Positions 246 through 21,415 of a stretch of DNA of 64,000 bases are shown in pieces (the stretch's first letter is position 1; every line of letters begins with the position of its first letter). The notes beneath the pieces are model-generated. The model was not told the origin of the DNA. It did not search any database and saw only the letters and a program-made list of their open reading frames with translations. The stretch lies in contig OZ246412.1 in assembly GCA_965231075.1 (NCBI GenBank), positions 463,282 to 527,281 on the forward strand. The letters are read 5' to 3'. Origin of the DNA: an uncultured Candidatus Saccharibacteria bacterium. Its GTDB lineage: Bacteria; Patescibacteriota; Minisyncoccia; RBG-13-40-8-A. The position numbers and the translations under genes are program-made.

Positions 246-1568
246 TTATTCCGTTAGCAATGTCAGCGTTTTGTCTTTATAAACAATTCTCGATCTTAAG
301 TTTCCGAGCAACTCTCTTTTCTCTGATACCGATCCCTCTTTTAAAATATACTTTGCGTAATTTCGTATATCCATATCTTCTCTATTTTTGACCTTATCCG
401 TGCTACCCAATACCGATCTTTGAAATATATTGAATCTTGCAATTTCATCTTCTAATTTTTGTCGCATTCCAAGTTCATTGATATTTACCCTATCCAATAT
501 CTTCAATAACTCGGCAATTAATTCTTCTTCACGAATATATTTGTTCTTACAGTTGCGATCTACACCTCGACTACAACCATAATAAATATAATGAGCTAAG
601 GTGCCATTTTTGAGCGGTTTCCATTTTTCCTCGGCTGATATGCCGGACCCGCAATAACCACACGTAAATAGCTTTGTAAAAGCGAATTCTTTGTTTTCTC
701 TAACTATCTGATCTCGTTTTAATTGCACCTTGGCTTTTTCAAACAAATCTTGAGTGATAATTGGTTCATGTTTGCCGGTATACCAATTTCCGCTTTCTTT
801 GGGATGTTCAAAAACTCCATAATAGAATGGATTATCTAATATACGATAAACTCCACTGAGCGTAAGAGGTTTATTGCCTCTTGTATAAAAATTCAATTCA
901 AATTTAAGCCAGTTATATATCTTTCTACCCGAATAATGTTCAAACGCTACTTTTTCAAACATCTTTTTAATAATCGGTGCTCGCAATGGGTCAATGATGA
1001 TCTGACACTTCTTATCCATATGTTTTTGATTCAAATATCCAAGTGGTGCCATTCCTGGCCACAATCCCATTTCTACTCTTGTTCTTAATCCTCGCTTTAC
1101 ATTAATACCCCTGTTGTCATTTTCTAATTTCGCCTGAGATCCCAAAATCATCAGCAAGAATTTCTCATTTGGATTATTACCAAATCTTTGTCCAAATGTT
1201 CGTATGTCTAAGAGGGCACCCGAATCCATTAAATCTACAATTTTTCCTAAATCGCCAGCATTCCTTGAAATACGATCCGGCGCCCAAGTGAGAATACCAT
1301 TAAATTTACCCTGTTTTAATTCTTCAATAATCTCATTGAAGACTGGCCGTTGTCCAGTTTCTTTAGCTGAGTGCGATTCTCGCTTCATTGTTACTACTTC
1401 TAAATTCTCTCTTTCAGCCAATTGAAGCATCTCTTTGATTTGGCTATCGATAGAAAGGACTTGTCGTTCCTCTGATTCTGTTGATTTCCTCGCGTAAAGA
1501 CAATATTTAATTTTCGTTGGAACTATTGTTTTGCCCGTAGTCCCCATGGGCATTTGCGCTGTATTCAT
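246..1568 (-). CDS. large serine recombinase (resolvase/invertase catalytic domain + recombinase domain + zinc ribbon)
   Basis: N-terminal YARKSTESEERQ..SIDSQ serine-recombinase catalytic motif; C-terminal CGYCGSG...YYGCS zinc-ribbon; 440 aa typical of phage/ICE large serine integrases. Confidence 0.85.
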   Translation of the reverse strand: MNTAQMPMGTTGKTIVPTKIKYCLYARKSTESEERQVLSIDSQIKEMLQLAERENLEVVTMKRESHSAKETGQRPVFNEIIEELKQGKFNGILTWAPDRISRNAGDLGKIVDLMDSGALLDIRTFGQRFGNNPNEKFLLMILGSQAKLENDNRGINVKRGLRTRVEMGLWPGMAPLGYLNQKHMDKKCQIIIDPLRAPIIKKMFEKVAFEHYSGRKIYNWLKFELNFYTRGNKPLTLSGVYRILDNPFYYGVFEHPKESGNWYTGKHEPIITQDLFEKAKVQLKRDQIVRENKEFAFTKLFTCGYCGSGISAEEKWKPLKNGTLAHYIYYGCSRGVDRNCKNKYIREEELIAELLKILDRVNINELGMRQKLEDEIARFNIFQRSVLGSTDKVKNREDMDIRNYAKYILKEGSVSEKRELLGNLRSRIVYKDKTLTLLTE

Positions 1569-1662
1569 ATACTTAATGAATGACGCAACCTATTTCGAGA
1601 GTCAAGAGCGTCCCATGTAGGCAAACTGTCGATAAATTATCTTGTGGTATTGTCCATTATTA

Positions 1663-2988
1663 CTACATCATCGGATTATCGTAAGGGTCAAAACGTTCCT
1701 CTTCTTCCTCTTCTGTGTCGTAATCATAAAAACCTGAATCATTATTTATTTTGCTCTCAATTATAGAGGCGTAACGATGAACATCGGCAGCATGAGATGT
1801 CCAATTATGATACGGAACTTCTCTAAACATATTTTTCTTATCATCCCATTCTCGTTTATATTCCGAAATGGCATTAATCCACAACGCACAATTGTTTTCA
1901 TCAACCATTAACATATTAAACGCGAATTTACCCATCTGAATGCCTTCATCAACTCCAAGTCTAGAATCAATAACGCTAAAGGATATACCAAGATCTTTAG
2001 CATAATCAATTCTCGTTTTTCCTGTACTTGTTTCTCTGGTGTTGATATCATGAGGCGCAAAATGTTTTCCGTAATTATATTCTTTTTGTTTTACTGCCAA
2101 CACGGCCTGATCGATCCCATCATTCTCGGTCCCTTGCCAATAATCAATCATATGCAACATTGCTCCGACGCGTTGATAAAATCCGATTGCCATAGCTGGA
2201 CCCACGCCTATATCCCACACAGTATGCACTTTAAATTCTTTTCTCCAAGGAACCATGCCTATACGATTATCGTTTCTTAACATCGCCAGTTCTTCTGCAT
2301 AGACCGCACCCTTAGTCGAAGCATTAAATGAGCAATAAAGCTCTTGCATAAATTCCTCGTGCGACATTGTTCTTCTGGAATTTTCTATCTCTTTCTGGCT
2401 AATGGTTCCTGTATCATCTGCCGTAAGATGGCAAGTAAACCATTCGCTATCATTCTTGTGAGTCTCATATAATAGATAGAATTCATTTCTGCCCTTTGGC
2501 GTTCCAATCCAAATACCATATCCTCCGTTATCAATAAGCGTTGGCCGAATTACTTCAGTAAAGATATTACTCGGCTGCATGCCGTATTCATCGAATACGA
2601 CCCCGCTCAAACCAATTCCTCTTAATCGATCAGGGTTTTCTGCGCCATACAATGTTATTTTTGACCCGCCAGGAAATTCTACTGATAATTCTGATTCTTT
2701 ACATTTTACTCCTGGAAATCTCGTATATCTTTTCAAAATACTCCATCCGGCGCTTTTGGCCATCTTATAGGTTGGAGCAATATACGCATAGTTAGTGCCA
2801 GGATTTTTTATTGCACTAAATATAAGATAATTTAGGGCTGCAGTTGTTTTGCCCGCACGTCGATGCACAACAAGCACCATCCAACGTTTATCGGTCTCAT
2901 GAAATGGGATTGCCCAATTTCGTGGCCGATATAGACTTAAAGATTTTTTGTCCATAAGTTTAATGTTTCTGGTTATGATTAAACTCAA
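1663..2988 (-). CDS. phage terminase large subunit-like ATPase/nuclease
   Basis: Walker A HRRAGKTTAA, Walker B hhhFDEYG (VVFDEYGM), size 441 aa, immediately downstream of a small HTH gene. Confidence 0.7.
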   Translation of the reverse strand: MSLIITRNIKLMDKKSLSLYRPRNWAIPFHETDKRWMVLVVHRRAGKTTAALNYLIFSAIKNPGTNYAYIAPTYKMAKSAGWSILKRYTRFPGVKCKESELSVEFPGGSKITLYGAENPDRLRGIGLSGVVFDEYGMQPSNIFTEVIRPTLIDNGGYGIWIGTPKGRNEFYLLYETHKNDSEWFTCHLTADDTGTISQKEIENSRRTMSHEEFMQELYCSFNASTKGAVYAEELAMLRNDNRIGMVPWRKEFKVHTVWDIGVGPAMAIGFYQRVGAMLHMIDYWQGTENDGIDQAVLAVKQKEYNYGKHFAPHDINTRETSTGKTRIDYAKDLGISFSVIDSRLGVDEGIQMGKFAFNMLMVDENNCALWINAISEYKREWDDKKNMFREVPYHNWTSHAADVHRYASIIESKINNDSGFYDYDTEEEEEERFDPYDNPMM

Positions 2989-3328
2989 CGTCTAGTGGCG
3001 TACTTATTTCGACCTTTGTTTTGTTATACTTCGGATGACACTTATTAAGACGATAAAGAACCGCCGGCCAGTATTTTTCTTTTATTAACAACAACAACTG
3101 ATGTTCGCTCATGTCGTTAATAAATTCATCGCCCTCAGCCATGGCATCTTCAACGGCCTTAGCAAATTCCGGATCTTCATTCCGCCACCGATAATAAGTG
3201 GCTTTTCCGACTCCAGCTTTCTCGCACGCCAACAACTGAATTGGGTATTTTCTCAGTTGCTCAAGTAAAATTTCTTTTTCTTTTACTTGTCTTGCTTTAA
3301 TTGTTTTTCGTTTTTTAGCGTTGTTCAT
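2960..3328 (-). CDS. small basic HTH protein, possible terminase small subunit
   Basis: 122 aa, basic N-terminus, HTH-like segment KATYYRWRNEDPEFAKAV; overlaps the start of the terminase-large-like gene (translational coupling). Confidence 0.35.
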   Translation of the reverse strand: MNNAKKRKTIKARQVKEKEILLEQLRKYPIQLLACEKAGVGKATYYRWRNEDPEFAKAVEDAMAEGDEFINDMSEHQLLLLIKEKYWPAVLYRLNKCHPKYNKTKVEISTPLDVEFNHNQKH

Positions 3329-4650
3329 ACAATTTTTTTGGCTTTTTGGCCAGTTAATTTTTCCCAGCGATATTTAATTACTTCTGTATATACTGGCGAC
3401 TTCTCCATTACATAACAACGTCGTTTCATTTTTTCGGCTGCAATTAAGGTGCTTCCCGACCCACCAAACGGTTCAACGATTAAATCATCGCGTTTGGTTA
3501 AGACTTTAATATATGGAATCAAAATCTCAATTGGCTTCGTGCCAAATACAACTCCTTGTCCGGAGTGTTTAGCATCTTCGGCGCGAAACTCGACGAAATC
3601 GCTTGGACAATATTTTTTTCCACCTTGATATTTTTCCCATTGCGGTTTGCCACTCGTTGCGTAGAGTGCTGTCTCGTATTCGTTTTGTAATAACTCTTCT
3701 TCCGGTTCAATGTTAAGTTGCTTATTTTTGGAACTTCCGACTAACGCAAAATCATATTTGTTGAAGAATTTGTATTTTGCCGAGAATCCCTGAGAACGAT
3801 TAGGCAAATGCCAAATGATCATATTCCGCACACGCCATCGTTTTTCAATTTCTGTCCAAATATGCGGAGCATTCTTCCAATACTCAAACACAATAATGCT
3901 GAAATCTTCTTTTGCAACAGTTTTTATATTCGTCATCCACTGTTCGGTAAAATTATCTGGCAATTCATCTGTTTCAAGATACCGACGATCACGTTTGTAA
4001 CCGAATCCTTTTTTTGTATTACCACGTCGCTTAATGCCCTGGAGGTATGCGAGCAAATAAGGAGGATCAGTGAACGACATATCTGCCTTTTCCCTATTCA
4101 TGAGCTTCAAGATATCTTTTTTAACAGTAGAATCTCCACACATTAAGCGGTGTGGTCCGAGCTGATACACATCGCCTTTCTTTACTTTAATCTTTTTGAT
4201 ATCCAGTTTGGCAAGTTCTTTTTCTAAATCAAACTCTTCTGCTACATCTTCGACCGCAAATATGTTGTCCAATTCTTCTGACGCAAATCCGATATCTGCC
4301 AAAAACGATTCCTTAAAATTAGTTAGCATGTCCCAGTCAAATTCTCCGGTATTTTTATTTAGTCGGATATTTAATTCTTTTTCTCTTTCAATGTCGGCAA
4401 TGTTTAAATACACAACCGGGATTTCTTTAAATTTTAATTCTTTAGCCGCCCGCAATCTCATGTGACCACCAATTACAACATTTTTTCTATTTGAAGCAAT
4501 GTTTACAATTATTGGATCAACTATTTGGAACCGCTTTATGCTTTTCTTCAGCTGTTCCATTGATTCTTTACTAATTTTTCGAGGATTATATTCGGATGGC
4601 TTAAGTTCGTTTATTGGAACATAAACGATATTTAGTTTATTATTTTGCAT
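3325..4650 (-). CDS. ParB-like nuclease domain fused to beta-class N6A/N4C DNA methyltransferase
   Basis: N-terminal ParB/Srx fold motif (NPRKISKESMEQLKKSIKRFQIVDPIIV...GGHMRLRAAKEL); C-terminal methyltransferase motif IV TDPPY followed by motif I EPFGGSGST. Confidence 0.8.
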   Translation of the reverse strand: MQNNKLNIVYVPINELKPSEYNPRKISKESMEQLKKSIKRFQIVDPIIVNIASNRKNVVIGGHMRLRAAKELKFKEIPVVYLNIADIEREKELNIRLNKNTGEFDWDMLTNFKESFLADIGFASEELDNIFAVEDVAEEFDLEKELAKLDIKKIKVKKGDVYQLGPHRLMCGDSTVKKDILKLMNREKADMSFTDPPYLLAYLQGIKRRGNTKKGFGYKRDRRYLETDELPDNFTEQWMTNIKTVAKEDFSIIVFEYWKNAPHIWTEIEKRWRVRNMIIWHLPNRSQGFSAKYKFFNKYDFALVGSSKNKQLNIEPEEELLQNEYETALYATSGKPQWEKYQGGKKYCPSDFVEFRAEDAKHSGQGVVFGTKPIEILIPYIKVLTKRDDLIVEPFGGSGSTLIAAEKMKRRCYVMEKSPVYTEVIKYRWEKLTGQKAKKIV

Positions 4651-5364
4651 GTTTTTTGGCGATTATTAATTTTTATTTTTTTATGCTGATTAATATCGAC
4701 CGTGGCCTTCAGGAGCACACATTGATCAGTAGAACGCAAAACGAGGAACGCACAAATGCGTTCCTCGTATGATTAAAATGGAAAAATCCAGAAGTTAAAC
4801 CACAAAGATACGCATTGCAACGCAATGTTTTAATGATTTAACTTCCGGATTTTTACGAGCGATCTTCACTCAAGAATGTTGGGTCACTTCTGTTGTTCTG
4901 ATCTGATTTTGTGAGCACATTCACTCACAAAGCAATAAATACTGAACTATGCGACAGAAGGTTGAATAAACCTCGAAAAGTTTTTGGATCTATTTTATTT
5001 TTAATGCTCTATTTTAATGTTAGCAAATTTTATTAAAATGTCAAGTCCAACATTATGCCTAACAGCCCATAATGAGTCAACCTGTTGGTAACTCGACTTC
5101 GCAAAGCCATTAAAATGAGATAACATGGGATTGATGTAGAAATCGATTTAAGTTATAATTCAATTAACAATTAAATAGCTTATAAGCAGATCTAAACCAT
5201 TTAGAGAAATCTGATGGCATGATCCAAAAACGTTCAACACAGAAAGCTCTTAGTCAGAGCACGTGTTGAACGTCATATCAGGAAACTGATATGGGTCCCG
5301 CAAGGGATCGCTGGCTAGGAGCTTTGTGTTTCTCGCCAATAATAATTAAAATCTATACAAAAAC

Positions 5365-5844
5365 ATGGGAAAATTAACAAATAAACTTAATCTCAAAATA
5401 CCAACATTTCTAAGGTGGATATTGTTTATTCCCGTTACTTTAATAATTTATAAAATTATTACCTTCGTAGTTTATCTCGGGGTTACTTTTTTGTTTCATT
5501 TTCTGGGCACACTGCATTGGTATCTCTTAATAATAATTCTGTTTCCTGCCGTTATCCTGCTAATAATTATTGCTGGTGGTATATGGGCTTGTTTCTATCT
5601 GGGGCTATCTCTCAGTCCTAATAAATTATTGTGCTGGCTACTCTCTGCGTGGCTTATATTCTCAGCGATTTCAACTATTCATGGATACTACTCACCAATC
5701 CCGCAGCAAGGTATTGATATTTCAATGCCCTGTTGGGCATATGTGATATTGCAAGCATATATTATTATCAGCTTAATAATGGCTGCCATTGTTAGTGGAA
5801 AAAATATTTCAAATAGAGAAGATAATAAAAATCAGGTAAAATAA
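5365..5844 (+). CDS. hypothetical polytopic membrane protein
   Basis: 159 aa, 4-5 hydrophobic helices, no recognisable motif. Confidence 0.4.
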   Translation: MGKLTNKLNLKIPTFLRWILFIPVTLIIYKIITFVVYLGVTFLFHFLGTLHWYLLIIILFPAVILLIIIAGGIWACFYLGLSLSPNKLLCWLLSAWLIFSAISTIHGYYSPIPQQGIDISMPCWAYVILQAYIIISLIMAAIVSGKNISNREDNKNQVK

Positions 5845-5848
5845 ATCT

Positions 5849-6247
5849 ATGAAGCTTTATTTTGACATTGATGGAGTTCTTATCGCACAAGGACGGAAAC
5901 CGGCTAACTATGTAGCCGAGTTTCTTAAAATAGCAACAGAGAAGCATAATTGCTATTGGCTTACAACTCATTGCAAGGATAGCTCCGAAGCTTCAATTGC
6001 GATGGATCACATTAAAGACGTCTTGCCAGCAGAAGCTATTTCTTATTGTGAACGAATTAAACCCACAGAATGGTCTCTAAAAAAAACCGAAGCAATTGAT
6101 CTTGATTCTGATTTTCTTTGGTTTGACGATGTTTCGTTTGATTTTGAAAAAGAAGTTCTATCGCAACACAATAAATCCAGCAATTTTGTGCTGGTTGATT
6201 TGATAAATAACCCCGATCAATTAAAAGAGTTAATTAAGTTATTATAG
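5849..6247 (+). CDS. hypothetical protein with HAD-like motif I (FDIDGVL)
   Basis: 132 aa; N-terminal DxDGV motif typical of HAD phosphatases, too short for a full HAD fold. Confidence 0.35.
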   Translation: MKLYFDIDGVLIAQGRKPANYVAEFLKIATEKHNCYWLTTHCKDSSEASIAMDHIKDVLPAEAISYCERIKPTEWSLKKTEAIDLDSDFLWFDDVSFDFEKEVLSQHNKSSNFVLVDLINNPDQLKELIKLL

Positions 6248-6262
6248 ATTTATAAATACTTA

Positions 6263-6291
6263 TTGACAGCAGATTTTATTTAAAATAATGT
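6263..6291 (+). promoter_or_regulatory. sigma70-like promoter (TTGACA-17-TAATGT) upstream of ORF 6493
   Basis: ttgacagcagattttatttaaaataatgt read directly; followed by a GC-rich ~110 nt leader. Confidence 0.4.
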
Positions 6292-6492
6292 AGATACATA
6301 CAATTGAATACGTTAATTATCAAGAGTGTGGCGAGAGCACTGGCTCAATGACCCACCGGCAACCCTTTAAGGCGACTCCTCAAGGAAGGTGCCAATTCCA
6401 GCTCCAAAAGGAGAAAGATAAAAGGTCGATTTTTTATTACTCTTTCTTTGTGGAAAGAGTTTTTTAATTATTAAATTAGTAAAAATAAAAAT

Positions 6493-6906
6493 ATGGAAAG
6501 TTTTGAAGAACAATTGAAACAAGGAATTCTTTATGGATTTATTCCCAAAGAGTTACAAATAGAGGGGCGTCCGGAATTAAACGTTTTTCCATTTAACGTT
6601 CTTTTTATGCGATTTAAACAAGAAGACGGGAAAACAATTTCCGGAAGCGCAGTATATGATCCAGATTTAAATTCGTTACAACAAGGCGCAGATAAATGGT
6701 CTATGCGTTACAATAACGCTTATGGTGGCGATAGTTGGCTTATAGTCGAATATGATATTGTGAGCAGGGGTTATCATGGTAAAAAATTCGTGAATGGTAA
6801 GTGCGTCGGAATAACAGATGGCCTAGAATGGAAAGGATTTTTTATACATCTCACCATATTGGGCCTATCCAATGGTGAACAATGCAGATTTGAGACTGTC
6901 GATTAA
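6493..6906 (+). CDS. hypothetical protein
   Basis: 137 aa ORF with AT-rich genome-typical codon usage; no motif recognised. Confidence 0.4.
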   Translation: MESFEEQLKQGILYGFIPKELQIEGRPELNVFPFNVLFMRFKQEDGKTISGSAVYDPDLNSLQQGADKWSMRYNNAYGGDSWLIVEYDIVSRGYHGKKFVNGKCVGITDGLEWKGFFIHLTILGLSNGEQCRFETVD

Positions 6907-7657
6907 ATTTCTCCAAAATCCAATTCAGGGACTGGAAAAAAGAGAAGAAAAGAGATATGATGAAGATGTAATGAAATCTATAAAAAACAATAGATTTATA
7001 ATTAAATCCAAGCAGAGAATCAAGGACCATGGAGAAGTATTTACTCCTGATTTTATTGTGCAAGAAATGCTTGATTTGGTAAAAAATGAAACTGAAAGGA
7101 TTGAATCCCGATTTTTGGAACCAGCTTGTGGCGATGGAAATTTTTTAGCTCCGATACTTGAGAGAAAACTTGAAGTGGTAAAGAGCAAATATAAATCAAG
7201 CCAAGTTGAATTTGAACGGAATGCTCTTTTGGCAGTGAGTAGTATTTATGGCGTTGAATTGTTGCAAGACAACGTTGTAGCGTGTATTGAGCGACTTTAT
7301 AAAATTGTTGATGAAGTATATTCAAAATTATACAAAGAAAAGTGCAGTATTGATTTTAGAAAAAGCATTCGATTTGTATTAAACAGGAATATCTTGCAAG
7401 GCAACGCGCTTGATCTAAAAACTTCTGATGGCAAAGAGCATATAGTTTTCTCCGAATGGTCACCTGCAAATGGCAGTTCAATTAAGAGAAGAGATTTTAG
7501 ATTTTTGGCTCTATCTAATTTTTATAAACCAGGCACATTGCCACTTGATTCAGTAAAAGAACTTTCAGATACCGGCGAAACCGTATTTTCCCCAATGCCG
7601 ATAAAAGAATTTCCGTTGAAACACTATCTTAAACTTGATTATGAAGATGCAAAATAA
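6872..7657 (+). CDS. N6-adenine methyltransferase-like protein lacking the catalytic NPPY/DPPY motif (methyltransferase paralog / possible partner subunit)
   Basis: motif X FTP ([13 protein letters not shown]) and motif [11 protein letters not shown] present, no motif IV anywhere in 261 aa; overlaps downstream methyltransferase gene start. Confidence 0.5.
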
Positions 7658-9137: not shown

Positions 9138-9138
9138 T

Positions 9139-11670: not shown

Positions 11671-11719
11671 AATTTGGGTTATTTGTTTTCAATATATAAA
11701 ATAATCAAAAAATAATTTT

Positions 11720-12885: not shown

Positions 12886-12940
12886 ACGATTAACAAAAAT
12901 TTAATTTTAGAAAACAACCCCATAATAAAGTTTAAAAATC

Positions 12941-13546
12941 ATGCACAGATTTAGAAATCCATTTATAGATATCGCTACATTGGTGGCTTTAATTATCAAT
13001 ACCATTGCTTTAATTGTGGTCATTTGGCAAACCATTATTGCGAAACGATCATTGGCTGTCACCAAAAAAAGTGTTGACGACGCAAAAACGCAAAGGCAAT
13101 TAGAAGCGCTTCCAAAATTCGCATGGGTAATTGAAATACAGGTGCAGTTAGAATGTTGGAAAAAGAGTTTACAAGAAAAAAGAGATCTGCTACAAAAAGG
13201 AATAGATGAAAAAAACAATGAAATGTTTAAAAAGGCAAGCGATACCAAAATAAAGAGTTCAAAAGATTTAGCCCTCAATAGATTTCTTTATGACAATATG
13301 CCCGCTTGGTTGCGAGAATTGTGGATGTCTGGTGTTCAATATTATTATGATGCGATAGCTGCACTACCCTATGTCTATAAAGACGAAAAACCAAACCATG
13401 ATTATGCTAAAAAATGGATAAAGGAGCGGTGTGGAGATTCATTACAAGCCATTTCAAAACTATTGGAATACTTTAAAGAAATGGTGCCACCTGTGATTTT
13501 AGACACGCCAGCAAGTTTGTCCGATAAAGATTTTTTGAGAGATTAA
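12941..13546 (+). CDS. hypothetical protein with N-terminal transmembrane helix
   Basis: 201 aa, TM helix LVALIINTIALIVVIW then charged coiled-coil-like region. Confidence 0.35.
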   Translation: MHRFRNPFIDIATLVALIINTIALIVVIWQTIIAKRSLAVTKKSVDDAKTQRQLEALPKFAWVIEIQVQLECWKKSLQEKRDLLQKGIDEKNNEMFKKASDTKIKSSKDLALNRFLYDNMPAWLRELWMSGVQYYYDAIAALPYVYKDEKPNHDYAKKWIKERCGDSLQAISKLLEYFKEMVPPVILDTPASLSDKDFLRD

Positions 13547-13578
13547 AGAGTGGAAAATAATAATAAAAAAATAAATTT

Positions 13579-14109
13579 ATGGATCAACTTAGTGGATTAT
13601 TTGGAAAATTGTTATTGTATTTGGGGCCAATTTTTATTGTGGCCTTAATAATTAAATATTTATTGCCAGAATTAATTAAGGCATTCAAGATAAGGAAGAA
13701 ATTTAAAGCTGGGCAAAAATGGAGTTCAGAAAAAGATTTAATTTATTGGTTGCGAGGAATGAAACCGTGGGAGTTTGAGGAATACATTTCTGGACTATTT
13801 TCAAAATTAGGTTATAAAATAGAAAAAGTCGGTGGAGGATATGATAAAGGAGTCGATGTTATTGCAGAGAAAAATGGAATTAAACACTATATCCAATGCA
13901 AGAAATACATAACTTCTGAAGTTGGAGTTGGCGAGGTTAGAGATTTTTATGGCGCAATTGCCGATCATTTGGCCCAAGGCAAGGGTTATTTCATAACCAC
14001 GAACAAATTCACCTTAGAAGCAGAAAAATTCGCTGAAAGCAAGCCAATCGAACTAATTGATTCTTATGGACTACTAAAGTATATTAAATTGGCAGAAGAT
14101 AAAAAATAA
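13579..14109 (+). CDS. membrane-anchored Mrr-like restriction endonuclease (Mrr_cat domain)
   Basis: N-terminal TM helix then YDKGVDVIAEK...IQCKKY (PD-(D/E)xK of Mrr family), GAIADHLAQGKGYFITT typical downstream segment. Confidence 0.65.
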   Translation: MDQLSGLFGKLLLYLGPIFIVALIIKYLLPELIKAFKIRKKFKAGQKWSSEKDLIYWLRGMKPWEFEEYISGLFSKLGYKIEKVGGGYDKGVDVIAEKNGIKHYIQCKKYITSEVGVGEVRDFYGAIADHLAQGKGYFITTNKFTLEAEKFAESKPIELIDSYGLLKYIKLAEDKK

Positions 14110-14111
14110 AA

Positions 14112-14798
14112 ATGCAAAAATTAGATAGAACGAAATATATTAGTGGAAAAAATCTCGGTGAATTGGCATTACAAAAATTTTGTCCAAGGTGTTTTTGGTT
14201 AAAAAGACACATTGGAGATACGCCGGGCGGTTTTCCTGGCATATTCTCCACTATCGATAGTTTAACCAAAAGAAGCACAAAGAGATCTTTTGATTCTAAA
14301 AATATTCCTCCACTTTGGTTAAAAATAAATGGTCTCAAAAAGGTTTTATCTGTTCCCAAGATAAAAGTTGATATGAGTGAGCATGGCGGATGGATTTTAA
14401 CTGGTGCCATTGATGATGCCTTTTTGAGAGATGACGGGACAGTGCATATCGTAGACTATAAGACCGCAAAGCATACAAAGACACAAGACGAATTACGACC
14501 AGAATACGATGTTCAATTAAATGCCTATGCACTTGCTTTACAAAAAATGGGGATTGGAAAGGTATCTCGTTTGTCTTTGATCTATTGCGAACCTAGTGAA
14601 AATTTAGATTCTGATAGTGATTTTAAATTATCTTTTAGTACACATATTGAAGATGTTGAAATAAACCCCGACCTTGTTCCCAAACTTCTGATTAAGGCAA
14701 GAAATATTTTAAATGCCGATATTCCCAATTCTATTGAAAAATGTACTGGTATTTGTTCGTGGATAGAAAAATACGACGTCAAAATGAGTAATTTATAA
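14112..14798 (+). CDS. Cas4/RecB-like PD-(D/E)xK nuclease with Cys cluster
   Basis: N-terminal CPRC, core GAIDDAF...VHIVDYKTAKH, C-terminal CTGICSW; architecture of Cas4/Dna2-type Fe-S nucleases; no CRISPR array nearby. Confidence 0.6.
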   Translation: MQKLDRTKYISGKNLGELALQKFCPRCFWLKRHIGDTPGGFPGIFSTIDSLTKRSTKRSFDSKNIPPLWLKINGLKKVLSVPKIKVDMSEHGGWILTGAIDDAFLRDDGTVHIVDYKTAKHTKTQDELRPEYDVQLNAYALALQKMGIGKVSRLSLIYCEPSENLDSDSDFKLSFSTHIEDVEINPDLVPKLLIKARNILNADIPNSIEKCTGICSWIEKYDVKMSNL

Positions 14799-14799
14799 A

Positions 14800-16308
14800 A
14801 TGAACGACGATTTATTGCAAAAATTAAAAGTCTGGAGACAAAACATGGTCAACATTGAAAAAGTTGAACCATTTCGAATTTTTACAAACAAAACATTGGA
14901 AAATATTGCAGAAATAAAACCATCAAACCGAGAGGAGCTGATGGCTATAAAGGGTATCAAAGATAGAAAATTTGCAAAATATGGAGAAAAGATTCTATCT
15001 ATAATCAATAATGGTGAAGAGTATCCAGAATTATTTAATAGTTCTCCAAACAAGCAACCCGACAAACCACTGTCTGTTAGTGCGTATATAGATTTGTTGA
15101 ATCATCAACTGAGCAAGTGTAGTGCCAGAATTAAGGGGGAAATTAGTAGTGTAGACACAAGAGATCGAGTTATATATTTCTCGCTCAAAGATTCAGACGA
15201 TGAGAGTATTATTAATTGTTTAATTTGGAAACGCGATTATAATTTGAGTGGCATTGAATTTGAGGTGGGCATGGAAGTTATTCTTGAAGGAACGCCCGAC
15301 ATGTACAAACCAACTGGTCGACTGTCGTTTAAGGCCTCATCGGTTGAGTTGGTTGGAGAGGGTGCCCTTAAAAAAGCATATGATCAATTGAAAAAGAAAC
15401 TCACCGCTGAAGGATTATTGTTAAAGGAGAGAAAAAGAGAAATTCCCAACCTTCCCCAAAAAATCGGAATAATTACTTCTCGACAAGGAGCAGTTTTAGC
15501 GGATTTCTTAAGTAATATTGGCCATTATGGTTTTAAAATTAAAATGATTGATTCTAGAGTCGAAGGACAGTCAGCTGTCACAGATTTACTGTCAGCCATT
15601 AAAACCATCAAGAAAAAAAATATTGAAGTTTTAGTTATCATGAGGGGCGGCGGTTCTTTTGAATCATTGCAGCCATTTAATAATGAATTATTAATTAGAG
15701 AGATTGTAAATTTTCCCGTTCCGGTAATTGCGGCAATTGGTCACGACAAAGACATGCCATTAGTTTCTTTGGTTGCAGACCTTGAAGTTTCCACGCCAAG
15801 CATTGCCGCCATTACGCTCAGCAAATCATGGAGGGAAGCCATTATGTTTTTAGAAAAGCATGAAAGAAGTATATTTGATAATTATGGAAATAACATAAAA
15901 AATACACACGACTTAATAAGTCAATCAATCGAGATAACTCGAGAATCCAGCGAATCTATTATCAAAAAATATAAAGATATTAAAAATAATTTTAGAGTCT
16001 CGGTCCAAATTTTTAAAAACACTTTATTAAATATTAAAGATGGTTTAACAGATTTTTGTAGCAAAACATTATTCGGTTTTAGCGGATTAGTTAAGAGAGG
16101 GTATCAACAACTGGAAAAATCGAGAAGCATTATCTCCGCGCATAATCCAGAACGACAATTGAGCCTGGGATACAGCATAGCTAGCATTGACGGCAAGATA
16201 GTTAAAAGCGTAAAAGATGCCACCGCGGGAAACAACATAAATTTAATGGTTACCGACGGAACGATTATTTCACAAATTAAAAATATAAATAAGAAATTAA
16301 TAAAATAA
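14800..16308 (+). CDS. xseA: exodeoxyribonuclease VII large subunit with N-terminal HRDC domain fusion
   Basis: residues ~1-80 match the HRDC pattern (LQKLKVWRQN..EPFRIFTNKTLENIAEIKPSNREELMAIKGIKDRKFAKYGEKIL); rest matches XseA (IGIITSRQGAVLADFL, VIMRGGGSFESL, AIGHDKD). Confidence 0.85.
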   Translation: MNDDLLQKLKVWRQNMVNIEKVEPFRIFTNKTLENIAEIKPSNREELMAIKGIKDRKFAKYGEKILSIINNGEEYPELFNSSPNKQPDKPLSVSAYIDLLNHQLSKCSARIKGEISSVDTRDRVIYFSLKDSDDESIINCLIWKRDYNLSGIEFEVGMEVILEGTPDMYKPTGRLSFKASSVELVGEGALKKAYDQLKKKLTAEGLLLKERKREIPNLPQKIGIITSRQGAVLADFLSNIGHYGFKIKMIDSRVEGQSAVTDLLSAIKTIKKKNIEVLVIMRGGGSFESLQPFNNELLIREIVNFPVPVIAAIGHDKDMPLVSLVADLEVSTPSIAAITLSKSWREAIMFLEKHERSIFDNYGNNIKNTHDLISQSIEITRESSESIIKKYKDIKNNFRVSVQIFKNTLLNIKDGLTDFCSKTLFGFSGLVKRGYQQLEKSRSIISAHNPERQLSLGYSIASIDGKIVKSVKDATAGNNINLMVTDGTIISQIKNINKKLIK

Positions 16309-16313
16309 ATAAT

Positions 16314-16547
16314 ATGCCAAAAGAATATGCCAAAAATTTAAATAATGATCTTAAGCGCTTATCGGAGATTACCGATTGGTTTAATAATCAAGAAGAAGTT
16401 GACGTAGAAGAGGGACTAAAAAAAGTGAAAGAAGCGGTCGGACTCATTAAGGCCAGTAAATCCAGACTTAAAGAGATAGAGAACGAATTTGAAGAAATTA
16501 AAAAGGAAATAGAAACAGAAGAAAAAACGGATGAAGAAAATAATTAA
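16314..16547 (+). CDS. xseB: exodeoxyribonuclease VII small subunit
   Basis: 77 aa, acidic helical protein directly downstream of xseA; LSEITDWFNNQE..VDVEEGLKKVKEAVGLIKASKSRL fits XseB. Confidence 0.75.
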   Translation: MPKEYAKNLNNDLKRLSEITDWFNNQEEVDVEEGLKKVKEAVGLIKASKSRLKEIENEFEEIKKEIETEEKTDEENN

Positions 16548-16562
16548 TGATTTTAATAAAAC

Positions 16563-17255
16563 ATGATTTCTCCCAAAGCAATAAAAGAATTCCAAGAAAT
16601 ATACAAGAAAGAATATGACAAGGAATTGACCCACGAAGAAGCAGCGGAGGCCAGCCGTAATTTGGCTGGCCTTTTTGAGATTTTATATAACAGCCACATC
16701 GCCGAACTTAAATTGAAAGAAAAACTGAAAAAATCTCCTAAGGGGTTTTCGTTAATGGATGGTCAAACCTATAACTGCGGCATTTGCCATGCCCAAATAA
16801 AAGACGAAGAACTTTGGTATGATAAATGGGGCAAAAAATGTTTGGCCTGCCAAGACGCAATCAATAAAAAAATCATTCCCGGGAAGATTTGTTATAACGA
16901 TAAATATTGGTATGCCACATGGGAACTTGAATCATATCTTAAATTGAAATCGCCGACGGTTAAAAAACTTATTCGACAAGGTGTTTTAAATGTTCGCATT
17001 ATACCCAAAAGTGGTTTTGAAGTTTTTCTTTTAAAAGAGAATGCTGATGTACTACCACCTAAAAATGTTTTAGAGCATGTTTCTGTGCCAACGAAAGGTG
17101 AAGAGAATACAATTACCATAACTCCTTGGTATGAAATTTATGATCCTAAAAAGGTACTTAGAAAATATAAGATTTGGCCATATTTAACAGCATTCCAGCA
17201 GTCCCCAAAAAATCATAAGCACTGTCGCATTTTGAAGGCAATGAAGAACTATTGA
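16563..17255 (+). CDS. hypothetical protein with CxxC...CxxC zinc ribbon
   Basis: 230 aa; CGICHAQ...KKCLACQ. Confidence 0.4.
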   Translation: MISPKAIKEFQEIYKKEYDKELTHEEAAEASRNLAGLFEILYNSHIAELKLKEKLKKSPKGFSLMDGQTYNCGICHAQIKDEELWYDKWGKKCLACQDAINKKIIPGKICYNDKYWYATWELESYLKLKSPTVKKLIRQGVLNVRIIPKSGFEVFLLKENADVLPPKNVLEHVSVPTKGEENTITITPWYEIYDPKKVLRKYKIWPYLTAFQQSPKNHKHCRILKAMKNY

Positions 17256-17279
17256 AATTAATCAAACCAAACAAAAATC

Positions 17280-18017
17280 ATGATTTATATTAAACTTAAA
17301 GGTAAAAATATGGTGTGTTTTGATGAAATCGAATTAGATAATTTGTATAAACAAAAACAATTTTTAGAAATTTTAAAGGAAATGTCTAGGCAAAATGTTA
17401 CATTTAACGACATAAGAAATGATGAACAAAAAATGTTAGATATCTCAAGTGCCATATCGCAAAACGCATCTAAGAGCAAAGAAGAACATGAATTTTTTTC
17501 GGCTTTTTACATATTCTTGAGATTTTATAAAAAAGACAGTAAGGTTTGTTTTGAATTAAAACATACTTTTGACTTTAAACAAACAATAGACACATTCGAA
17601 GACCTAAAAAAGGCAACAGAAGAAGATACTCTAAATGATTTCATTATTAAATCTGGAAACGAAATAAAATTATTTCAGTTAAAAAGATTTCGAGATGAAG
17701 CAAAAACCGACCAAGCACAAAGGTTTATAAAAAAAGTATTATTACATTACGGTAATAACCTGGGAGAAACAAATTTATTAATAATGCTAGAATCTCCAAA
17801 ATGGGGATCTGCCATAGAAGAGAAATTTTTTGAGAATATAAACAAAGAAATTAATAGCTTAAAACTGAAATCAGAATCACAAATACTAATTGCATATAAC
17901 GAAAATAATATGCACAGCGTTGTTGTTCAGGTCTATCCAAGACTCGCCAAATCACAAATTCCTCTAAAAATAAACTATAGGTCTCTATTGTCAGAATATG
18001 AAAAACGTCAAAATTAA
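17280..18017 (+). CDS. hypothetical protein
   Basis: 245 aa, charged/helical, no motif recognised. Confidence 0.4.
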   Translation: MIYIKLKGKNMVCFDEIELDNLYKQKQFLEILKEMSRQNVTFNDIRNDEQKMLDISSAISQNASKSKEEHEFFSAFYIFLRFYKKDSKVCFELKHTFDFKQTIDTFEDLKKATEEDTLNDFIIKSGNEIKLFQLKRFRDEAKTDQAQRFIKKVLLHYGNNLGETNLLIMLESPKWGSAIEEKFFENINKEINSLKLKSESQILIAYNENNMHSVVVQVYPRLAKSQIPLKINYRSLLSEYEKRQN

Positions 18018-18023
18018 ACTTCA

Positions 18024-18602
18024 ATGACAATGATTTCAGAAAAACAATTTAAAGAAAATCTAATATATAATTTAAACCGCCTTAGCTTAGGATGGATTGA
18101 TGGAGATAAACAAAATCACAATAACAGAACCGCTGATATAGTAAACCATCGGGTCAAGACAGCTATAGAGATTAAAGACGACACAAAATACAAAACCGAA
18201 CTACCCACGGTCCCCGGGGTTATAATTGGACAGGGATGTGATCTAACAAAGATGAATCAACGATATAGTGATCATGTTAAGTCAGCAAACAATAAATTTA
18301 AACAATATCCTGGCTATAAAACAATTTTAATTTTCAGAACAGAATTTATAATTACCGATATTATTCGATATGCAATTGAGGGGTTGCATTCTTATCAGAA
18401 ATCAGGAGCTGGAATGACGTATATTGGTCGGAGAGGCAAATATTCACAATTCGCTAAAAACGAAATAGGATGTTTTATTATAATCAATGGAGGTGATTTT
18501 GGTTATTTCCCAAACCAACTCTCAAAAGAAGATCGTATCATGAGTAAAGATGAGATAGAAATAATATTCGGACACAAATTTAACGATATCTCTACAAGAT
18601 AA
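18024..18602 (+). CDS. hypothetical protein, possible PD-(D/E)xK nuclease fold
   Basis: 192 aa; TADIVNHRVKTAIEIKDD resembles D...ExK core. Confidence 0.35.
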   Translation: MTMISEKQFKENLIYNLNRLSLGWIDGDKQNHNNRTADIVNHRVKTAIEIKDDTKYKTELPTVPGVIIGQGCDLTKMNQRYSDHVKSANNKFKQYPGYKTILIFRTEFIITDIIRYAIEGLHSYQKSGAGMTYIGRRGKYSQFAKNEIGCFIIINGGDFGYFPNQLSKEDRIMSKDEIEIIFGHKFNDISTR

Positions 18603-18607
18603 AGCAT

Positions 18608-19579
18608 ATGGTTAAGAATAAAAACATTATAATTGTAGTTGGAACAATTTTAGCAATAATAATTATCGCGGTTTTTGTGTTTCTATATCAATTTTCCGCG
18701 CCACGAAGAAATGCTGAAGAAGAAAGCATAGTGGTTAATTCTACCACCACCACAACAGAATTAATCCCAAAATTAAAAGAACAGGGATATATAAAAAATA
18801 TATGGGCATTTAAATTTGCGTTAAAGAATGGAGAAGTTAGACCAGGCGGATATAAAATTTCAAAAGGCATGAATGCGTGGAAAATTGCCAGAATATTAAC
18901 TGGCGAGCCATATATGAAATGGGTCGTGATTCCCGAAGGATTAAGAAAAGAACAAATAGCGAAAATCCTTAGCGATGAACTTGGCTGGAACGAACAACAA
19001 GAAAGTGATTGGATTAAAAAATACACCGCCATGAAATTCGATTATATTGAGGGCGTTTATTTTCCCGATACCTACCTTATACCGAAAAATGAAAATGGAC
19101 TAGAAGTTGCCCAACGTTTTATTAATAAATTTAACGAAGAATTTGCATCGTATTCTGATAAATTTACACAAGCGAATATTAAATGGACCACCGCCTTAAA
19201 AATCGCTTCACTTATTCAGCGAGAAGCAGGAAGCAAAGACGATATGCCGCTTATTGCGGGCATAATCTGGAACCGCTTATCAAAAGATATGAAGCTCGAA
19301 ATTGACGCCACGCTGCAGTATGCCAGAGGTGATACCGGCAATGGTTGGTGGTCACCAATCAATGTATCGGACAAACAGACCGATTCGCCATATAATACTT
19401 ATCTTTATAAGGGACTTCCGCCTCATCCAATTTGTAATCCGGGAATCAACGCCATAGACGCGGTTTTAAATCCTACCCAGACCGATTGTTTATATTATTT
19501 ACATGATTCGAATAGACAAATTCATTGTGCCGTAACCTACGAGGAGCATAAAGCAAACATTGAAAAATATCTAAAATAA
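18608..19579 (+). CDS. mltG: endolytic murein transglycosylase MltG (YceG family)
   Basis: N-terminal TM helix, YFPDTYLIP and LASLIQREAGSKDDMPLIAGIIWNRL motifs. Confidence 0.85.
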   Translation: MVKNKNIIIVVGTILAIIIIAVFVFLYQFSAPRRNAEEESIVVNSTTTTTELIPKLKEQGYIKNIWAFKFALKNGEVRPGGYKISKGMNAWKIARILTGEPYMKWVVIPEGLRKEQIAKILSDELGWNEQQESDWIKKYTAMKFDYIEGVYFPDTYLIPKNENGLEVAQRFINKFNEEFASYSDKFTQANIKWTTALKIASLIQREAGSKDDMPLIAGIIWNRLSKDMKLEIDATLQYARGDTGNGWWSPINVSDKQTDSPYNTYLYKGLPPHPICNPGINAIDAVLNPTQTDCLYYLHDSNRQIHCAVTYEEHKANIEKYLK

Positions 19580-19622
19580 AACGGATGGGAAAATACTGAG
19601 ATTTATTAAAATTAATACGAAA

Positions 19623-20591
19623 ATGAGTCACAAAATATTCTCAGAAAAAATTGATCTTATTCACAAGGCTCGCGAAGCCATGCTTTCGGCTGTTCAAATT
19701 TATAATAATCCACTCATCACATTTAAGACAGAATCTTTTATAGTTCTATCATTAATTGCGTGGACTTATATGCTTCATGCACACTATCGTTCTGAGAGAA
19801 TTGATTATCGTTATTCTACTATACCAAAAAAGCGCAAAAAATTTGTTCGTAATCCAGACGGAAGTATTCGTTATTGGGATCTAACGGAATGTATTTCCCG
19901 ACAAGCCTGTCCTCTCGACAAAGACACAAAAAATAATTTAGGCTTTCTGATAGGATTGCGGAATCAAATTGAACACAAAAAAGCTACGGGACTAGATTCA
20001 TATCTATCGGCTCGTTATCAAGCATGTGCCCTAAATTTTAATTATTACCTTAAAAAAATTCATGGAGAAAAATTTGGATTAGATCAAAGCCTAGCTCTAA
20101 GTTTACAATTTGCGGAACTCGATTATTCTCAATCAAAAATTATCAAAGATAAAGAAGGATTAATACCTCAGGATATAATTTCTTATATCGCTAATTTCGA
20201 TGGCAAACTATCAAATGCCGAGATAGAGAGTGACAGATTCGCATATAGATTACTTTTTACTAAAGTGGTTGCGAAAAGAAAAGGACAAGCAGATAGAGTT
20301 ATCGAGTTTATTGATCCAAATTCGAAGCTAGCCAAGAATATCTCTCAGCAATATTGGGTTAAAGAAGAAAAAGAGAAAGCAAAGTTTTCTGCGACTCAAG
20401 TAATCCAAAAAGTGCAAGAAGCTGGATTTAAAAGTTTTAGCATGCATCAACATACTGTTTTTTGGAAAGAGCGTGATGGCAAAAATCCCGACAAGGGATT
20501 CGGGGTAATTGTGGTTAAAACATGGTGTTGGTACCAAAATTGGATTGATTGCATAATCAACGAACTTAATAATGAAAAAACGGACAAATGA
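19623..20591 (+). CDS. HEPN-domain protein (Rx4-6H motif), Abi-like
   Basis: alpha-helical protein with GLRNQIEHKK (R-x4-H HEPN signature). Confidence 0.55.
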   Translation: MSHKIFSEKIDLIHKAREAMLSAVQIYNNPLITFKTESFIVLSLIAWTYMLHAHYRSERIDYRYSTIPKKRKKFVRNPDGSIRYWDLTECISRQACPLDKDTKNNLGFLIGLRNQIEHKKATGLDSYLSARYQACALNFNYYLKKIHGEKFGLDQSLALSLQFAELDYSQSKIIKDKEGLIPQDIISYIANFDGKLSNAEIESDRFAYRLLFTKVVAKRKGQADRVIEFIDPNSKLAKNISQQYWVKEEKEKAKFSATQVIQKVQEAGFKSFSMHQHTVFWKERDGKNPDKGFGVIVVKTWCWYQNWIDCIINELNNEKTDK

Positions 20592-20637
20592 GACACGAGA
20601 CAATACCCATAAAAAGTGTCTCATTTGTCTTATTTGT
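20588..20637 (+). terminator. Rho-independent terminator after HEPN gene
   Basis: atgagacac / gtgtctcat 9-bp stem followed by ttgtcttatttg. Confidence 0.65.
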
Positions 20638-20664
20638 AAAAGCTGACCCCGACCCACGTGCTTC

Positions 20665-20693
20665 TTGAAATAGAGCCGAAAAAATGTTAAAAT
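20665..20693 (+). promoter_or_regulatory. sigma70-like promoter TTGAAA-17-TAAAAT for GGDEF gene
   Basis: ttgaaatagagccgaaaaaatgttaaaat read directly, ~40 nt upstream of ATG 20733. Confidence 0.5.
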
Positions 20694-20732
20694 ACCCTTA
20701 CGGTACGGGTTACTTAACCCGACTGTTCCGCA

Positions 20733-21302
20733 TTGTTTATGTCTAGTGAAATAAAAATCCTACAAAAAGAAAATCGAGAATTAAAAAAAGAAATCAACCA
20801 ACTAAAGGAATTGGTTACCGTTGATTATCTCACTAAAATATATAATCGTCGTGCTTTTTCTCATTTTTTAAAAAATCTTTGCCAAGAAGTAAAATGGACG
20901 GCTCAAAACATGAGTCGTCGACAGCGCAAAGAATTTTTTTCTTTATTGTTAATTGATATCGATGATTTTAAAAAAATAAATGATGCCCACGGACATCTCT
21001 ATGGTGACAAGGTTTTACAAAAAGTCGCAAGGTTTTTAGAAAACTCCGTTAGAGATTTTGATGTTGTCGCTCGGTGGGGAGGCGAAGAATTTGTAATTAT
21101 TTTACAAGAGGCAACCCTTAGACAGGCCCAAGCTAGGGCAGAAGTAATATTAAAAAATGCTCCTAAAAAACTATCGATTACCTTTAGCATTGGCGTAGTC
21201 GAATCAAGTCCTGGACTTACAGAAAAATCAATATTCCATAAAGCCGATCGTGCTGTTTATAAAGCAAAAAGGTTGGGCAAGAATCAAATTGTTTTAGCGT
21301 AA
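20733..21302 (+). CDS. GGDEF-domain diguanylate cyclase with N-terminal coiled coil
   Basis: RxxF...IDIDDFKKINDAHGH...RWGGEEF active-site motif. Confidence 0.85.
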   Translation: MFMSSEIKILQKENRELKKEINQLKELVTVDYLTKIYNRRAFSHFLKNLCQEVKWTAQNMSRRQRKEFFSLLLIDIDDFKKINDAHGHLYGDKVLQKVARFLENSVRDFDVVARWGGEEFVIILQEATLRQAQARAEVILKNAPKKLSITFSIGVVESSPGLTEKSIFHKADRAVYKAKRLGKNQIVLA

Positions 21303-21305
21303 AAT

Positions 21306-21390
21306 GGAGGAGTCGCATAGTGGCCTAGTGCGACGGTCTTGAAAACCGTTAGAGGGCAACCTCTCGTGAGTTCGAATCTCACCTCCTCCG
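21306..21390 (+). tRNA. tRNA-Ser (anticodon TGA), long variable arm
   Basis: acceptor ggaggag/ctcctcc, anticodon stem acggt/accgt with loop cttgaaa, T-arm gtgag ttcgaat ctcac; folded by hand. Confidence 0.9.
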
Positions 21391-21415
21391 AATTCAAAAT
21401 TAATGACAAGTAAAA

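Follow-up and report, generated by a model that had tools for sequence, protein, structure and literature searches.

Where does a variable, recombinase-bearing region of a small bacterial genome begin and end, and what governs the exchange of its genes? The question is raised by a 64-kb stretch of DNA from an uncultured Candidatus Saccharibacteria bacterium (64,000 nucleotides, positions 463,282 to 527,281 of contig OZ246412.1, assembly GCA_965231075.1; hereafter the window), in which a gene for a large serine recombinase (LSR) lies near the left edge and a tRNA-Ser(TGA) gene further to the right, with terminase, methyltransferase and nuclease genes between them. An earlier note on this DNA read the interval as a single tRNA-associated island of ~21 kb, possibly a mosaic of degraded prophage and defence island, with the LSR at one end and tRNA-Ser(TGA) at the other. 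Follow-up analysis partly confirms that reading: the island is real, but it was given the wrong bounds and the wrong description. The model favoured here, to which we assign a probability of roughly 55%, is a composite variable island of ~29 kb that is anchored at a tRNA-Ser(GCT) gene outside the window and organised by the resident LSR, with a cassette-capturing core site beside the recombinase and defence hot spots beyond a neighbouring LOOT RNA. Window positions 246-20731 would be its larger part, and the tRNA-Ser(TGA) that catches the eye in the window would be a coincidence, the true anchor lying beyond it.

Bacteria of the candidate phyla radiation (CPR; Patescibacteria) have tiny genomes. 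To our knowledge few mobile elements have been recognised in them, CRISPR is mostly absent and the renewal of their defences against phages is poorly understood. If the model holds, the combination of LSR, core and tRNA-Ser marks a place where defence genes are stored and exchanged, and such islands could readily be found in thousands of metagenomic genomes.

The 9.7 kb leftward of window position 1 were read from a 50-kb Logan contig with identical sequence (a 626-kb contig has it as well), and positions there are given as negative numbers. Close relatives were gathered by a metagenome scan with the XseA protein as query, numbered as loci, and mapped with blastn and tblastn; the source genome itself is locus L122 in this numbering, with window 183 to about -8400 corresponding to L122 11371-19975. 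Domain and family calls come from Pfam, PHROG, PADLOC and Rfam, and tRNA calls include those of ARAGORN.

The recombinase and its tRNA-Ser partner

The LSR gene (246-1568, minus strand) has the Resolvase, Recombinase and Zn_ribbon_recom domains of Pfam, a PHROG integrase match and, read from its translation, the catalytic motif YARKSTES, so that the three domains and the catalytic serine motif of a large serine recombinase are all present. All 8000 of the 8000 scored candidate homologues have E<=1e-60, and the best 120 of these 8000 matches are 83-100% identical and come from Patescibacteria wherever the source is named. Named homologues of the recombinase and of an alanyl-tRNA synthetase (AlaRS) encoded nearby all belong to Parcubacteria, Paceibacterota, Magasanikbacteria and similar groups. 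The neighbourhoods of LSR homologues include CBASS, methyltransferases and an OLD nuclease (L112), a CD-NTase and an MmeI-type restriction-modification (R-M) system with helicase and T5orf172 (L113), Mrr and Shedu (L115) and a KAP NTPase (L118).

Is the recombinase one end of the island, as first proposed? In the source genome a further ~8.7 kb separates it from a tRNA-Ser(GCT) gene at -8593 to -8506 (plus strand), ~8.5 kb left of the window and convergent with the LSR, which is thus not the left end; the suspicion that an attachment boundary lay beyond position 1 was well placed. The order is tRNA-Ser(GCT), a conserved flank termed site a, AlaRS, a set resembling those for ribosomally synthesised and post-translationally modified peptides (RiPPs), an AP endonuclease, a SET protein and the LSR. 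The SET-domain gene straddles window position 1, the RiPP-type set consists of a radical SAM protein and a Lant_dehydr-like protein, and the AlaRS is short (640 aa).

A tRNA-Ser gene converges on the LSR in all seven loci with enough sequence 3' of the recombinase, the source genome and six others. The partner is tRNA-Ser(TGA) at a distance of 0.9 kb in L033, tRNA-Ser(GGA) at 4.1 kb in L112, and tRNA-Ser(GCT) in L113 (6.1 kb), L115 (6.0 kb), L118 (2.9 kb) and L123, where a contig end cuts the locus. These six repeat the order tRNA-Ser, site a, cargo of 0.9-6 kb (mainly defence genes) and LSR. Site a is a conserved stretch of ~60 nt directly 3' of each LSR-linked tRNA-Ser (GACAATTTTTTATCGG ... 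GCGACCCGAGTG). It is found with three tRNA-Ser isoacceptors (TGA, GGA and GCT) and is absent from tRNA-Ser genes that have no LSR neighbour, namely the TGA and CGA genes of the window and the TGA genes of L010 and L013. Because it stands beside three different isoacceptors, site a most likely travels with the LSR-linked DNA. In the model the LSR would organise the island, with variable cargo held between the recombinase and the convergent tRNA-Ser.

Genomic islands integrated at a tRNA gene lie 3' of their target tRNA. At tRNA-Ser(GCT) this geometry is found: the tRNA gene is intact and terminal, and the island extends 3' of it and encloses a recombinase gene. It is not found at tRNA-Ser(TGA) (21305-21391, plus strand), which was rejected as the attachment site: the region lies on the 5' side of this plus-strand gene, site a is missing, and a search for a repeat of its 3' end, including the sequence upstream of the window, gave only chance matches of 10-11 nt from -6675 to 64000. 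The association of the island with a tRNA-Ser gene thus survives, with a different tRNA as the partner.

Two observations on tRNA genes may be added. The window holds 16 of them, including tRNA-Ser(TGA) and tRNA-Ser(CGA), and such a density is high for a genome that measures at least 626 kb. In L113 ARAGORN places a tRNA-Ser with the unusual anticodon ACT at 9514-9602, directly upstream of tRNA-Ser(GCT).

A duplicated 10-bp core between the recombinase and LOOT

On the other side of the recombinase gene, ~70-80 nt 5' of its start codon are kept in nine loci irrespective of the gene that lies upstream. This leader (site b; 1569-1635, minus strand) ends in the core TTATCGACAG at 1626-1635. It was considered as an RNA hairpin; an outer GACGC/GCGTC pair is invariant while the inner part shows no consistent covariation, and it has been treated as a DNA site. 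The 10-bp core, TTAYCRACAG, sits between LOOT and the leader, which, read towards the gene, starts with it. The simplest arrangement occurs in L118 and L120, where the LOOT and LSR genes are divergent neighbours and the sequence between them runs uninterrupted as flank, single core and flank (tttgcgaagcttag-TTACCAACAG-tttacctacttgggacgctctggactc).

In the window the same junction is found in two parts. The core with the LSR-side flank is at 1626-1635, the LOOT-side flank with a second core copy is at 5082-5091 (site c, minus strand; TTACCAACAG with the flank tttgcgaagtcgag), and between them lies an insert of ~3.4 kb (1636-5081) with a trio of genes for two terminase-type proteins and a ParB-methyltransferase. 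L009, L010 and L032 agree with the window in having one direct copy of the core on either side of the trio. In L112 and L115 an unrelated cassette, with Dam and N4/N6 methyltransferases and two unknown open reading frames (ORFs), occupies the position between two cores. The core pattern is expected by chance ~0.01 times per kb. A broad scan of IMG/VR for the LOOT-side flank with the core returned mostly chance matches and only three real loci.

Judged from these junctions, the duplicated core is the footprint of site-specific insertion at a single site by cassettes without a recombinase gene. In the proposed mechanism, circular cassettes would be inserted at the core beside the LSR and leave one copy of it on each side, the trio being the cassette captured here. 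The LSR would be the catalyst of these insertions. Recombinases of its type act at defined attachment sites with a 2-bp crossover, and of such sites the analysis saw the duplicated 10-bp core. If the model holds, the LSR would be a candidate tool for site-specific recombination whose short target is known.

The trio itself is intact. The large terminase (1663-2988, minus strand) has the Pfam domain Terminase_6N, a PHROG large-terminase match, and Walker A (GKT) and Walker B (DE) motifs. The small-terminase-like helix-turn-helix protein (2960-3328, minus strand) matches the PHROG small terminase (E=2.9e-10) and Pfam HTH_Tnp_1_2, and Pfam identifies the third product (3325-4650, minus strand) as a ParB_N nuclease domain fused to an N6_N4 methyltransferase. 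The ratio of nonsynonymous to synonymous divergence (dN/dS) is 0.07 for the large terminase against L009 and L033 and 0.05 for the ParB-methyltransferase, at a synonymous divergence (dS) of at least 1, and these values of 0.05-0.07 show strong purifying selection on the trio. The selected genes may serve transfer. Sequence reading and a terminator scan place an inverted-repeat-rich non-coding stretch at the end of the cassette (4651-5081), which contains a hairpin (4741-4768; stem of 12 bp) and, at ~4783-4856, a long palindrome; the stretch is kept in L010, L032 and L033. The large terminase of L035 is separated from the LSR by a type I R-M system and an AAA_21 ATPase.

LOOT, an RNA motif catalogued in Rfam as RF03000 and lacking a known function, is present in the window at 5189-5309 (plus strand), where it scores 84.9 bits against a gathering threshold of 46.4 over model positions 1-121, the full model. 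It has a promoter-like site of its own at 5131-5159. Rfam finds LOOT by the core site in L009, L010, L032, L033, L112 and L118 and near the trio in L013, and an nhmmer profile built from these Rfam hits adds L120, L139, L147 and L159. The distance to the core is ~60-100 nt in 11 of 12 loci. The exception is L013, where LOOT is near the trio and a core-like match has the opposite orientation. These findings place LOOT in a new setting, beside the site of a recombinase. Its transcription is directed away from the core, with a different gene in each lineage within 15-90 nt downstream. The idea that LOOT loops act as guides complementary to the core was rejected, the matching stem covarying freely among LOOT copies.

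Cassettes, backbone and the right-hand end

From LOOT to tRNA-Ser(TGA) the features lie on the plus strand, and the comparison with relatives separates a shared backbone from sites that vary. The backbone consists of the trio, LOOT, two ORFs at 5365-6247, the ORF at 11720-12133, the genes for a Cas4-like nuclease, XseA and XseB, the ORF at 16563-17255, YceG and a 147-bp element at the right-hand end. The relatives L008, L009 and L010 lack or replace 6260-11689, 12139-14095, 17267-18600 and 19579-20583, so that the description of the region as accessory and variable is borne out. In the model, R-M and other defence cassettes beyond LOOT would be gained, lost and swapped between the conserved backbone genes.

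Beyond LOOT the backbone encodes a membrane protein (5365-5844), followed by a small ORF whose product has a DxDG motif (5849-6247), both common to L009, L010 and L032; a homologue of the latter lies downstream of the LSR in L112. The first variable cassette, V1 (6260-11689), holds an S-adenosylmethionine (SAM) riboswitch, a terminator, a 137-aa ORF and a split R-M system. It is missing from L009, and L010 has RadC-Dam, Dam, an AlwI endonuclease and an OLD nuclease instead. The R-M genes are two Eco57I/MmeI-type methyltransferase ORFs (6872-7657 and 7635-9137) and a helicase-nuclease with T5orf172 and ResIII domains (9139-11670). The C-terminal part of the PADLOC model PDLC03626 matches the 500-aa methyltransferase ORF and its N-terminal part the 843-aa ORF; in other words, 7635-11670 encodes the fused type IIG model as two ORFs in reverse order. 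A 261-aa N-terminal methyltransferase fragment precedes the 500-aa ORF.

The riboswitch at 6314-6424 belongs to the SAM-I family (RF00162; 67.2 bits against a gathering threshold of 44.4), and the terminator at 6439-6460 partly coincides with a stretch that is complementary to the 3' strand of its P1 stem, as expected of a member. Riboswitch and terminator precede ORF137 (6493-6906; 137 aa, no known family) and then the split R-M operon. The same RNA lies upstream of an ORF137 homologue in five of five other Patescibacteria loci checked (L112, L114, L115, L116 and L117), and the genes that follow these homologues differ: an OLD nuclease, Mrr, a response regulator with a Macro-domain protein, or methyltransferases with an SNF2 helicase. 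The ORF137 family has 269 representatives and its predicted fold is confident (predicted local distance difference test, pLDDT, 87.5); comparison of the fold and of the family gave no convincing structural or family match. A SAM riboswitch is thus found in a new setting, ahead of ORF137-type proteins within defence neighbourhoods.

A backbone ORF of unknown function (11720-12133; 97-99% identical in L008, L009 and L010) separates V1 from V2 (12139-14095), which holds two unknown ORFs and a type IV Mrr-type endonuclease (13579-14109; Pfam Mrr_cat and PADLOC) and is missing from L008, L009 and L010. The block that follows (14112-17255) is common to the same three relatives and comprises a Cas4-like PD-(D/E)XK nuclease (14112-14798) and XseA with an HRDC N-terminus (14800-16308), both called by Pfam, XseB (16314-16547) and an unknown ORF (16563-17255). 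The N-terminal HRDC domain of XseA has a Pfam E of 9e-20, and distant relatives align only from about residue 62-90 onward; the fusion may be lineage-specific. Among representative genomes the nearest XseA matches are Patescibacteria and Saccharibacteria metagenome-assembled genomes (MAGs) at 45-51% identity, and in synteny comparison with GTDB representative genomes these matches have no neighbours in common with the window. At V3 (17267-18600) two orphan ORFs stand where L009 and L010 have unrelated ORFs. The housekeeping gene for YceG/MltG follows (18608-19579; Pfam YceG, E=3.6e-73; 91% identical in L010), and V4 is a DUF3644 ORF (19623-20591), the PADLOC candidate PDC-S19, whose span 19579-20583 is missing from L010. 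A HEPN protein had also been listed; no HEPN match was obtained, DUF3644 being the family of this ORF. The rest of the gene list given at first (LSR, terminases, ParB-methyltransferase, R-M, Mrr, Cas4-like nuclease and GGDEF protein) was recovered where it had been placed. Its summary as almost entirely mobile or defence-type needs amending, since xseA with its HRDC domain, xseB and yceG/mltG also lie inside and LOOT and the SAM-I riboswitch had been overlooked.

V1, V2 and V4 carry defence-type genes in the window, and the clustering of a type IIG-like R-M system, a type IV Mrr and PDC-S19 in the PADLOC results identifies a defence island, one part of the original mosaic description that stands. 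Equivalent sites in relatives hold AlwI R-M, OLD, type I R-M, CBASS and Shedu. Cassette turnover is seen among relatives of 81-97% nucleotide identity, and from these comparisons the cassettes are judged to vary independently of one another, at odds with a single ~21-kb unit. Identity with L010 is itself a mosaic (99.8% for XseA at a dS of 0.003, 76% for RecG and 61% for the GGDEF protein), which suggests recent exchange of parts of the region. The island, or parts of it, may still be mobile.

Where would the island end on the right? The conserved 147-bp element (20584-20731) contains a hairpin, a promoter-like site and, at ~20690-20731, a degenerate tRNA-Ser 3' fragment. It is kept in L008, L009 and L010 amid different genes on both sides. 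The element terminates in GGGTTACTTAACCCGACTGTTCCGCAttg and tRNA-Ser(GCT) of the source genome in GGGTTCGAATCCCACCCTCTCCGCAttg; the two match in 36 of 54 columns, a score that 20 of 3000 random windows reach (p ~0.007). In L009, L127 and L128 the element runs straight into site a and AlaRS, and all three assemblies show an identical junction. A junction of exactly this kind is what recombination of the fragment with the end of tRNA-Ser(GCT) would produce, whether in a circle, in a tandem array or in a transposed copy. The element could be an old far attachment site, and the decayed fragment is probably where the island ends. This candidate boundary is only moderately supported, because the arrangement in the L009 lineage is complex. 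The 5' half of a Lant_dehydr-like gene is fused there to the middle of a second, divergent xseA (L009 14155-14237; L127 13840-13929), the second xseA fragment is ~76% identical to the L013 type, and the fusion recurs in two assemblies. L009 as a simple circular contig was rejected: it has no terminal overlap, and its end is the fusion to the foreign-looking xseA fragment.

The hairpin that opens the 147-bp element (window 20584-20636) has a 14-bp stem, GACAAATGAGACAC...GTGTCTCATTTGTC. With L002 10603-10683 and L013 13403-13450 set beside it, the hairpin can also be made out directly behind xseA/xseB in a distant Patescibacteria MAG (76% over 83 nt). Beyond the element, and outside the proposed island, Pfam identifies a GGDEF diguanylate cyclase (20733-21302), after which come tRNA-Ser(TGA), two orphan ORFs, tRNA-Arg and recG. 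The GGDEF gene precedes tRNA-Ser(TGA) in the window and follows it in L010 (15082-16485; 61% identity); on the opposite side of the tRNA the window and L010 have different orphan ORFs, so that both flanks of this tRNA are variable.

Rival readings and known systems

Could the same pattern arise at a fixed defence hot spot, with cassettes exchanged by homologous recombination through the backbone genes and the LSR a domesticated, vertically inherited protein such as an invertase or a regulator? This is possible, if doubtful. LSR copies are 83-100% identical between lineages whose AlaRS is just 62-69% identical, and because synonymous sites are saturated between the copies, the recombinase looks like an old gene kept vertically under strong constraint rather than one that has spread recently. 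The region is, moreover, nearly indistinguishable in composition from the remaining window, relatives have backbone and housekeeping genes in common, and the edges of V1 and V2 carry no recognisable repeat. A fixed hot spot would, however, leave several observations aside: an identical 10-bp core surrounds two unrelated inserts exactly at the LSR-LOOT junction, site a accompanies the LSR to three tRNA-Ser isoacceptors, L009, L127 and L128 share a fusion of the 147-bp element with site a, and identity with L010 is mosaic.

The features that speak for a fixed hot spot (the old and constrained LSR, the bare edges of V1 and V2 and the weak compositional signal) weigh against an LSR-organised island as well, and others join them. 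The compositional check hardly sets the region apart: GC content is 35.2% against 36.5% in the remaining window, the tetranucleotide L1 distance is 0.213 against 0.176 with the gap partly due to bias in the reference profile, and a sign flip of the GC skew near 5 kb coincides with the switch of coding strand. AlaRS, xseAB and mltG are odd cargo for a mobile element. The tRNA-like fragment at the right-hand end is only ~67% identical to tRNA-Ser(GCT), and an empty site for the whole island, with tRNA-Ser(GCT) joined to the GGDEF side, was seen in none of the retrieved relatives. Distant LSR relatives (59% identity; L139 and L159) have no tRNA within 4 kb. Sites a and b were tried as inverted arms of one attachment site and show no significant similarity in six loci. 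Finally, the L010 mosaic could be the product of a chimeric contig, and a rearrangement or shared assembly error is possible in the L009 lineage.

It is unlikely, though the trio invites the idea, that the element resembles a phage satellite, integrated by the LSR and packaged by its terminases and ParB-methyltransferase into helper-phage capsids. Both terminase genes are intact and under selection, and capsid, portal, tail and lysis genes gave no Pfam or PHROG match in 246-21302. Several such loci are listed as viral in IMG/VR, related large terminases (~40% identity) occur on IMG/VR contigs of ~23-35 kb, and near-identical segments are found between genomes whose flanking genes are divergent. 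In many LSR loci, however, either the large terminase is missing, as in L112, or all of the trio is, as in L113; the trio of L118 is situated outside the LSR-LOOT junction, no replication or repressor module was recognised in the element and no helper phage is known.

The single ~21-kb island at tRNA-Ser(TGA) does have recombinase and terminase genes on its left, the tRNA on its right and a variable, defence-rich region between, yet it is very improbable: the region lies 5' of a tRNA with neither repeat nor site a, the LSR has its tRNA-Ser partner, the GCT gene, on the opposite side, the interval encloses xseAB and mltG among independently varying cassettes, the terminases are not degraded and structural genes are missing, and L010 and L013 retain tRNA-Ser(TGA) at the same position but beside other genes. 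A prophage, intact or degraded, was rejected on the absence of structural and lysis genes or their remnants from 246-21302 and on terminases that are intact and not pseudogenes, and an integron on a recombinase that is serine-type, not IntI, and on cassette ends that have just the 10-bp core in common.

The island anchored at tRNA-Ser(GCT) invites a broader and more tentative proposal, to which we give rather less than an even chance: Patescibacteria may possess a resident, LSR-based cassette-capture platform, integron- or SCC-like, with a tRNA-Ser anchor, a 10-bp core and LOOT as its neighbour, that exchanges terminase, R-M and defence cassettes. If true, this would give the orphan LOOT RNA a genomic role and would explain how anti-phage genes are renewed in small genomes. 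The literature that was searched contains no report of this arrangement, nor any that links LOOT, an LSR, tRNA-Ser or a SAM riboswitch with R-M in CPR.

How does such an island compare with known systems? Classical tRNA-integrated islands, as in the Islander catalogue, normally use tyrosine integrases (PMC4383910). The present island is like them in its intact tRNA at one end, its recombinase inside, its variable cargo and its candidate displaced tRNA 3' fragment, and unlike them in having an LSR, a degenerate fragment, housekeeping genes inside and no empty site seen. Defence islands and hot spots share with it the clustering of R-M, Mrr, OLD, CBASS, Shedu and PDC-S19 genes that turn over at fixed positions, but here the cluster is tied to a single conserved recombinase, a defined core site and the LOOT RNA. 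Known phage satellites include the Vibrio PLE, which uses an LSR, and the capsid-forming phage-inducible chromosomal islands (PICIs). The Vibrio PLE is mentioned in bioRxiv 10.1101/671271. As in satellites, a serine integrase, genes related to packaging and defence cargo are combined in a small integrative element; the difference is that capsid genes, a replication module and a helper phage were not identified here and that the trio is dispensable in many loci.

Integrons have a tyrosine recombinase, IntI, an attI site and attC hairpins, and their chromosomal forms are sedentary and vertically inherited. Like them, the locus has a resident recombinase with an adjacent insertion site that gathers cassettes without a recombinase; unlike them, it has no attC hairpins, and its cassettes span 3-4 kb, hold several genes each and bring regulatory regions of their own. 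Staphylococcal cassette chromosome (SCC) elements use Ccr recombinases, which are LSRs, insert at a fixed site in rlmH, form tandem or composite arrays with short direct repeats between the units and carry R-M cargo. An LSR, insertion at a fixed site, direct repeats between units and R-M cargo recur here, but the anchor is tRNA-Ser rather than rlmH, the core has another sequence, the core-flanked cassettes lack a recombinase and LOOT adjoins the site. By analogy, then, the island resembles tRNA-integrated islands in its placement, and in the way it would function it most resembles SCC elements and sedentary integrons.

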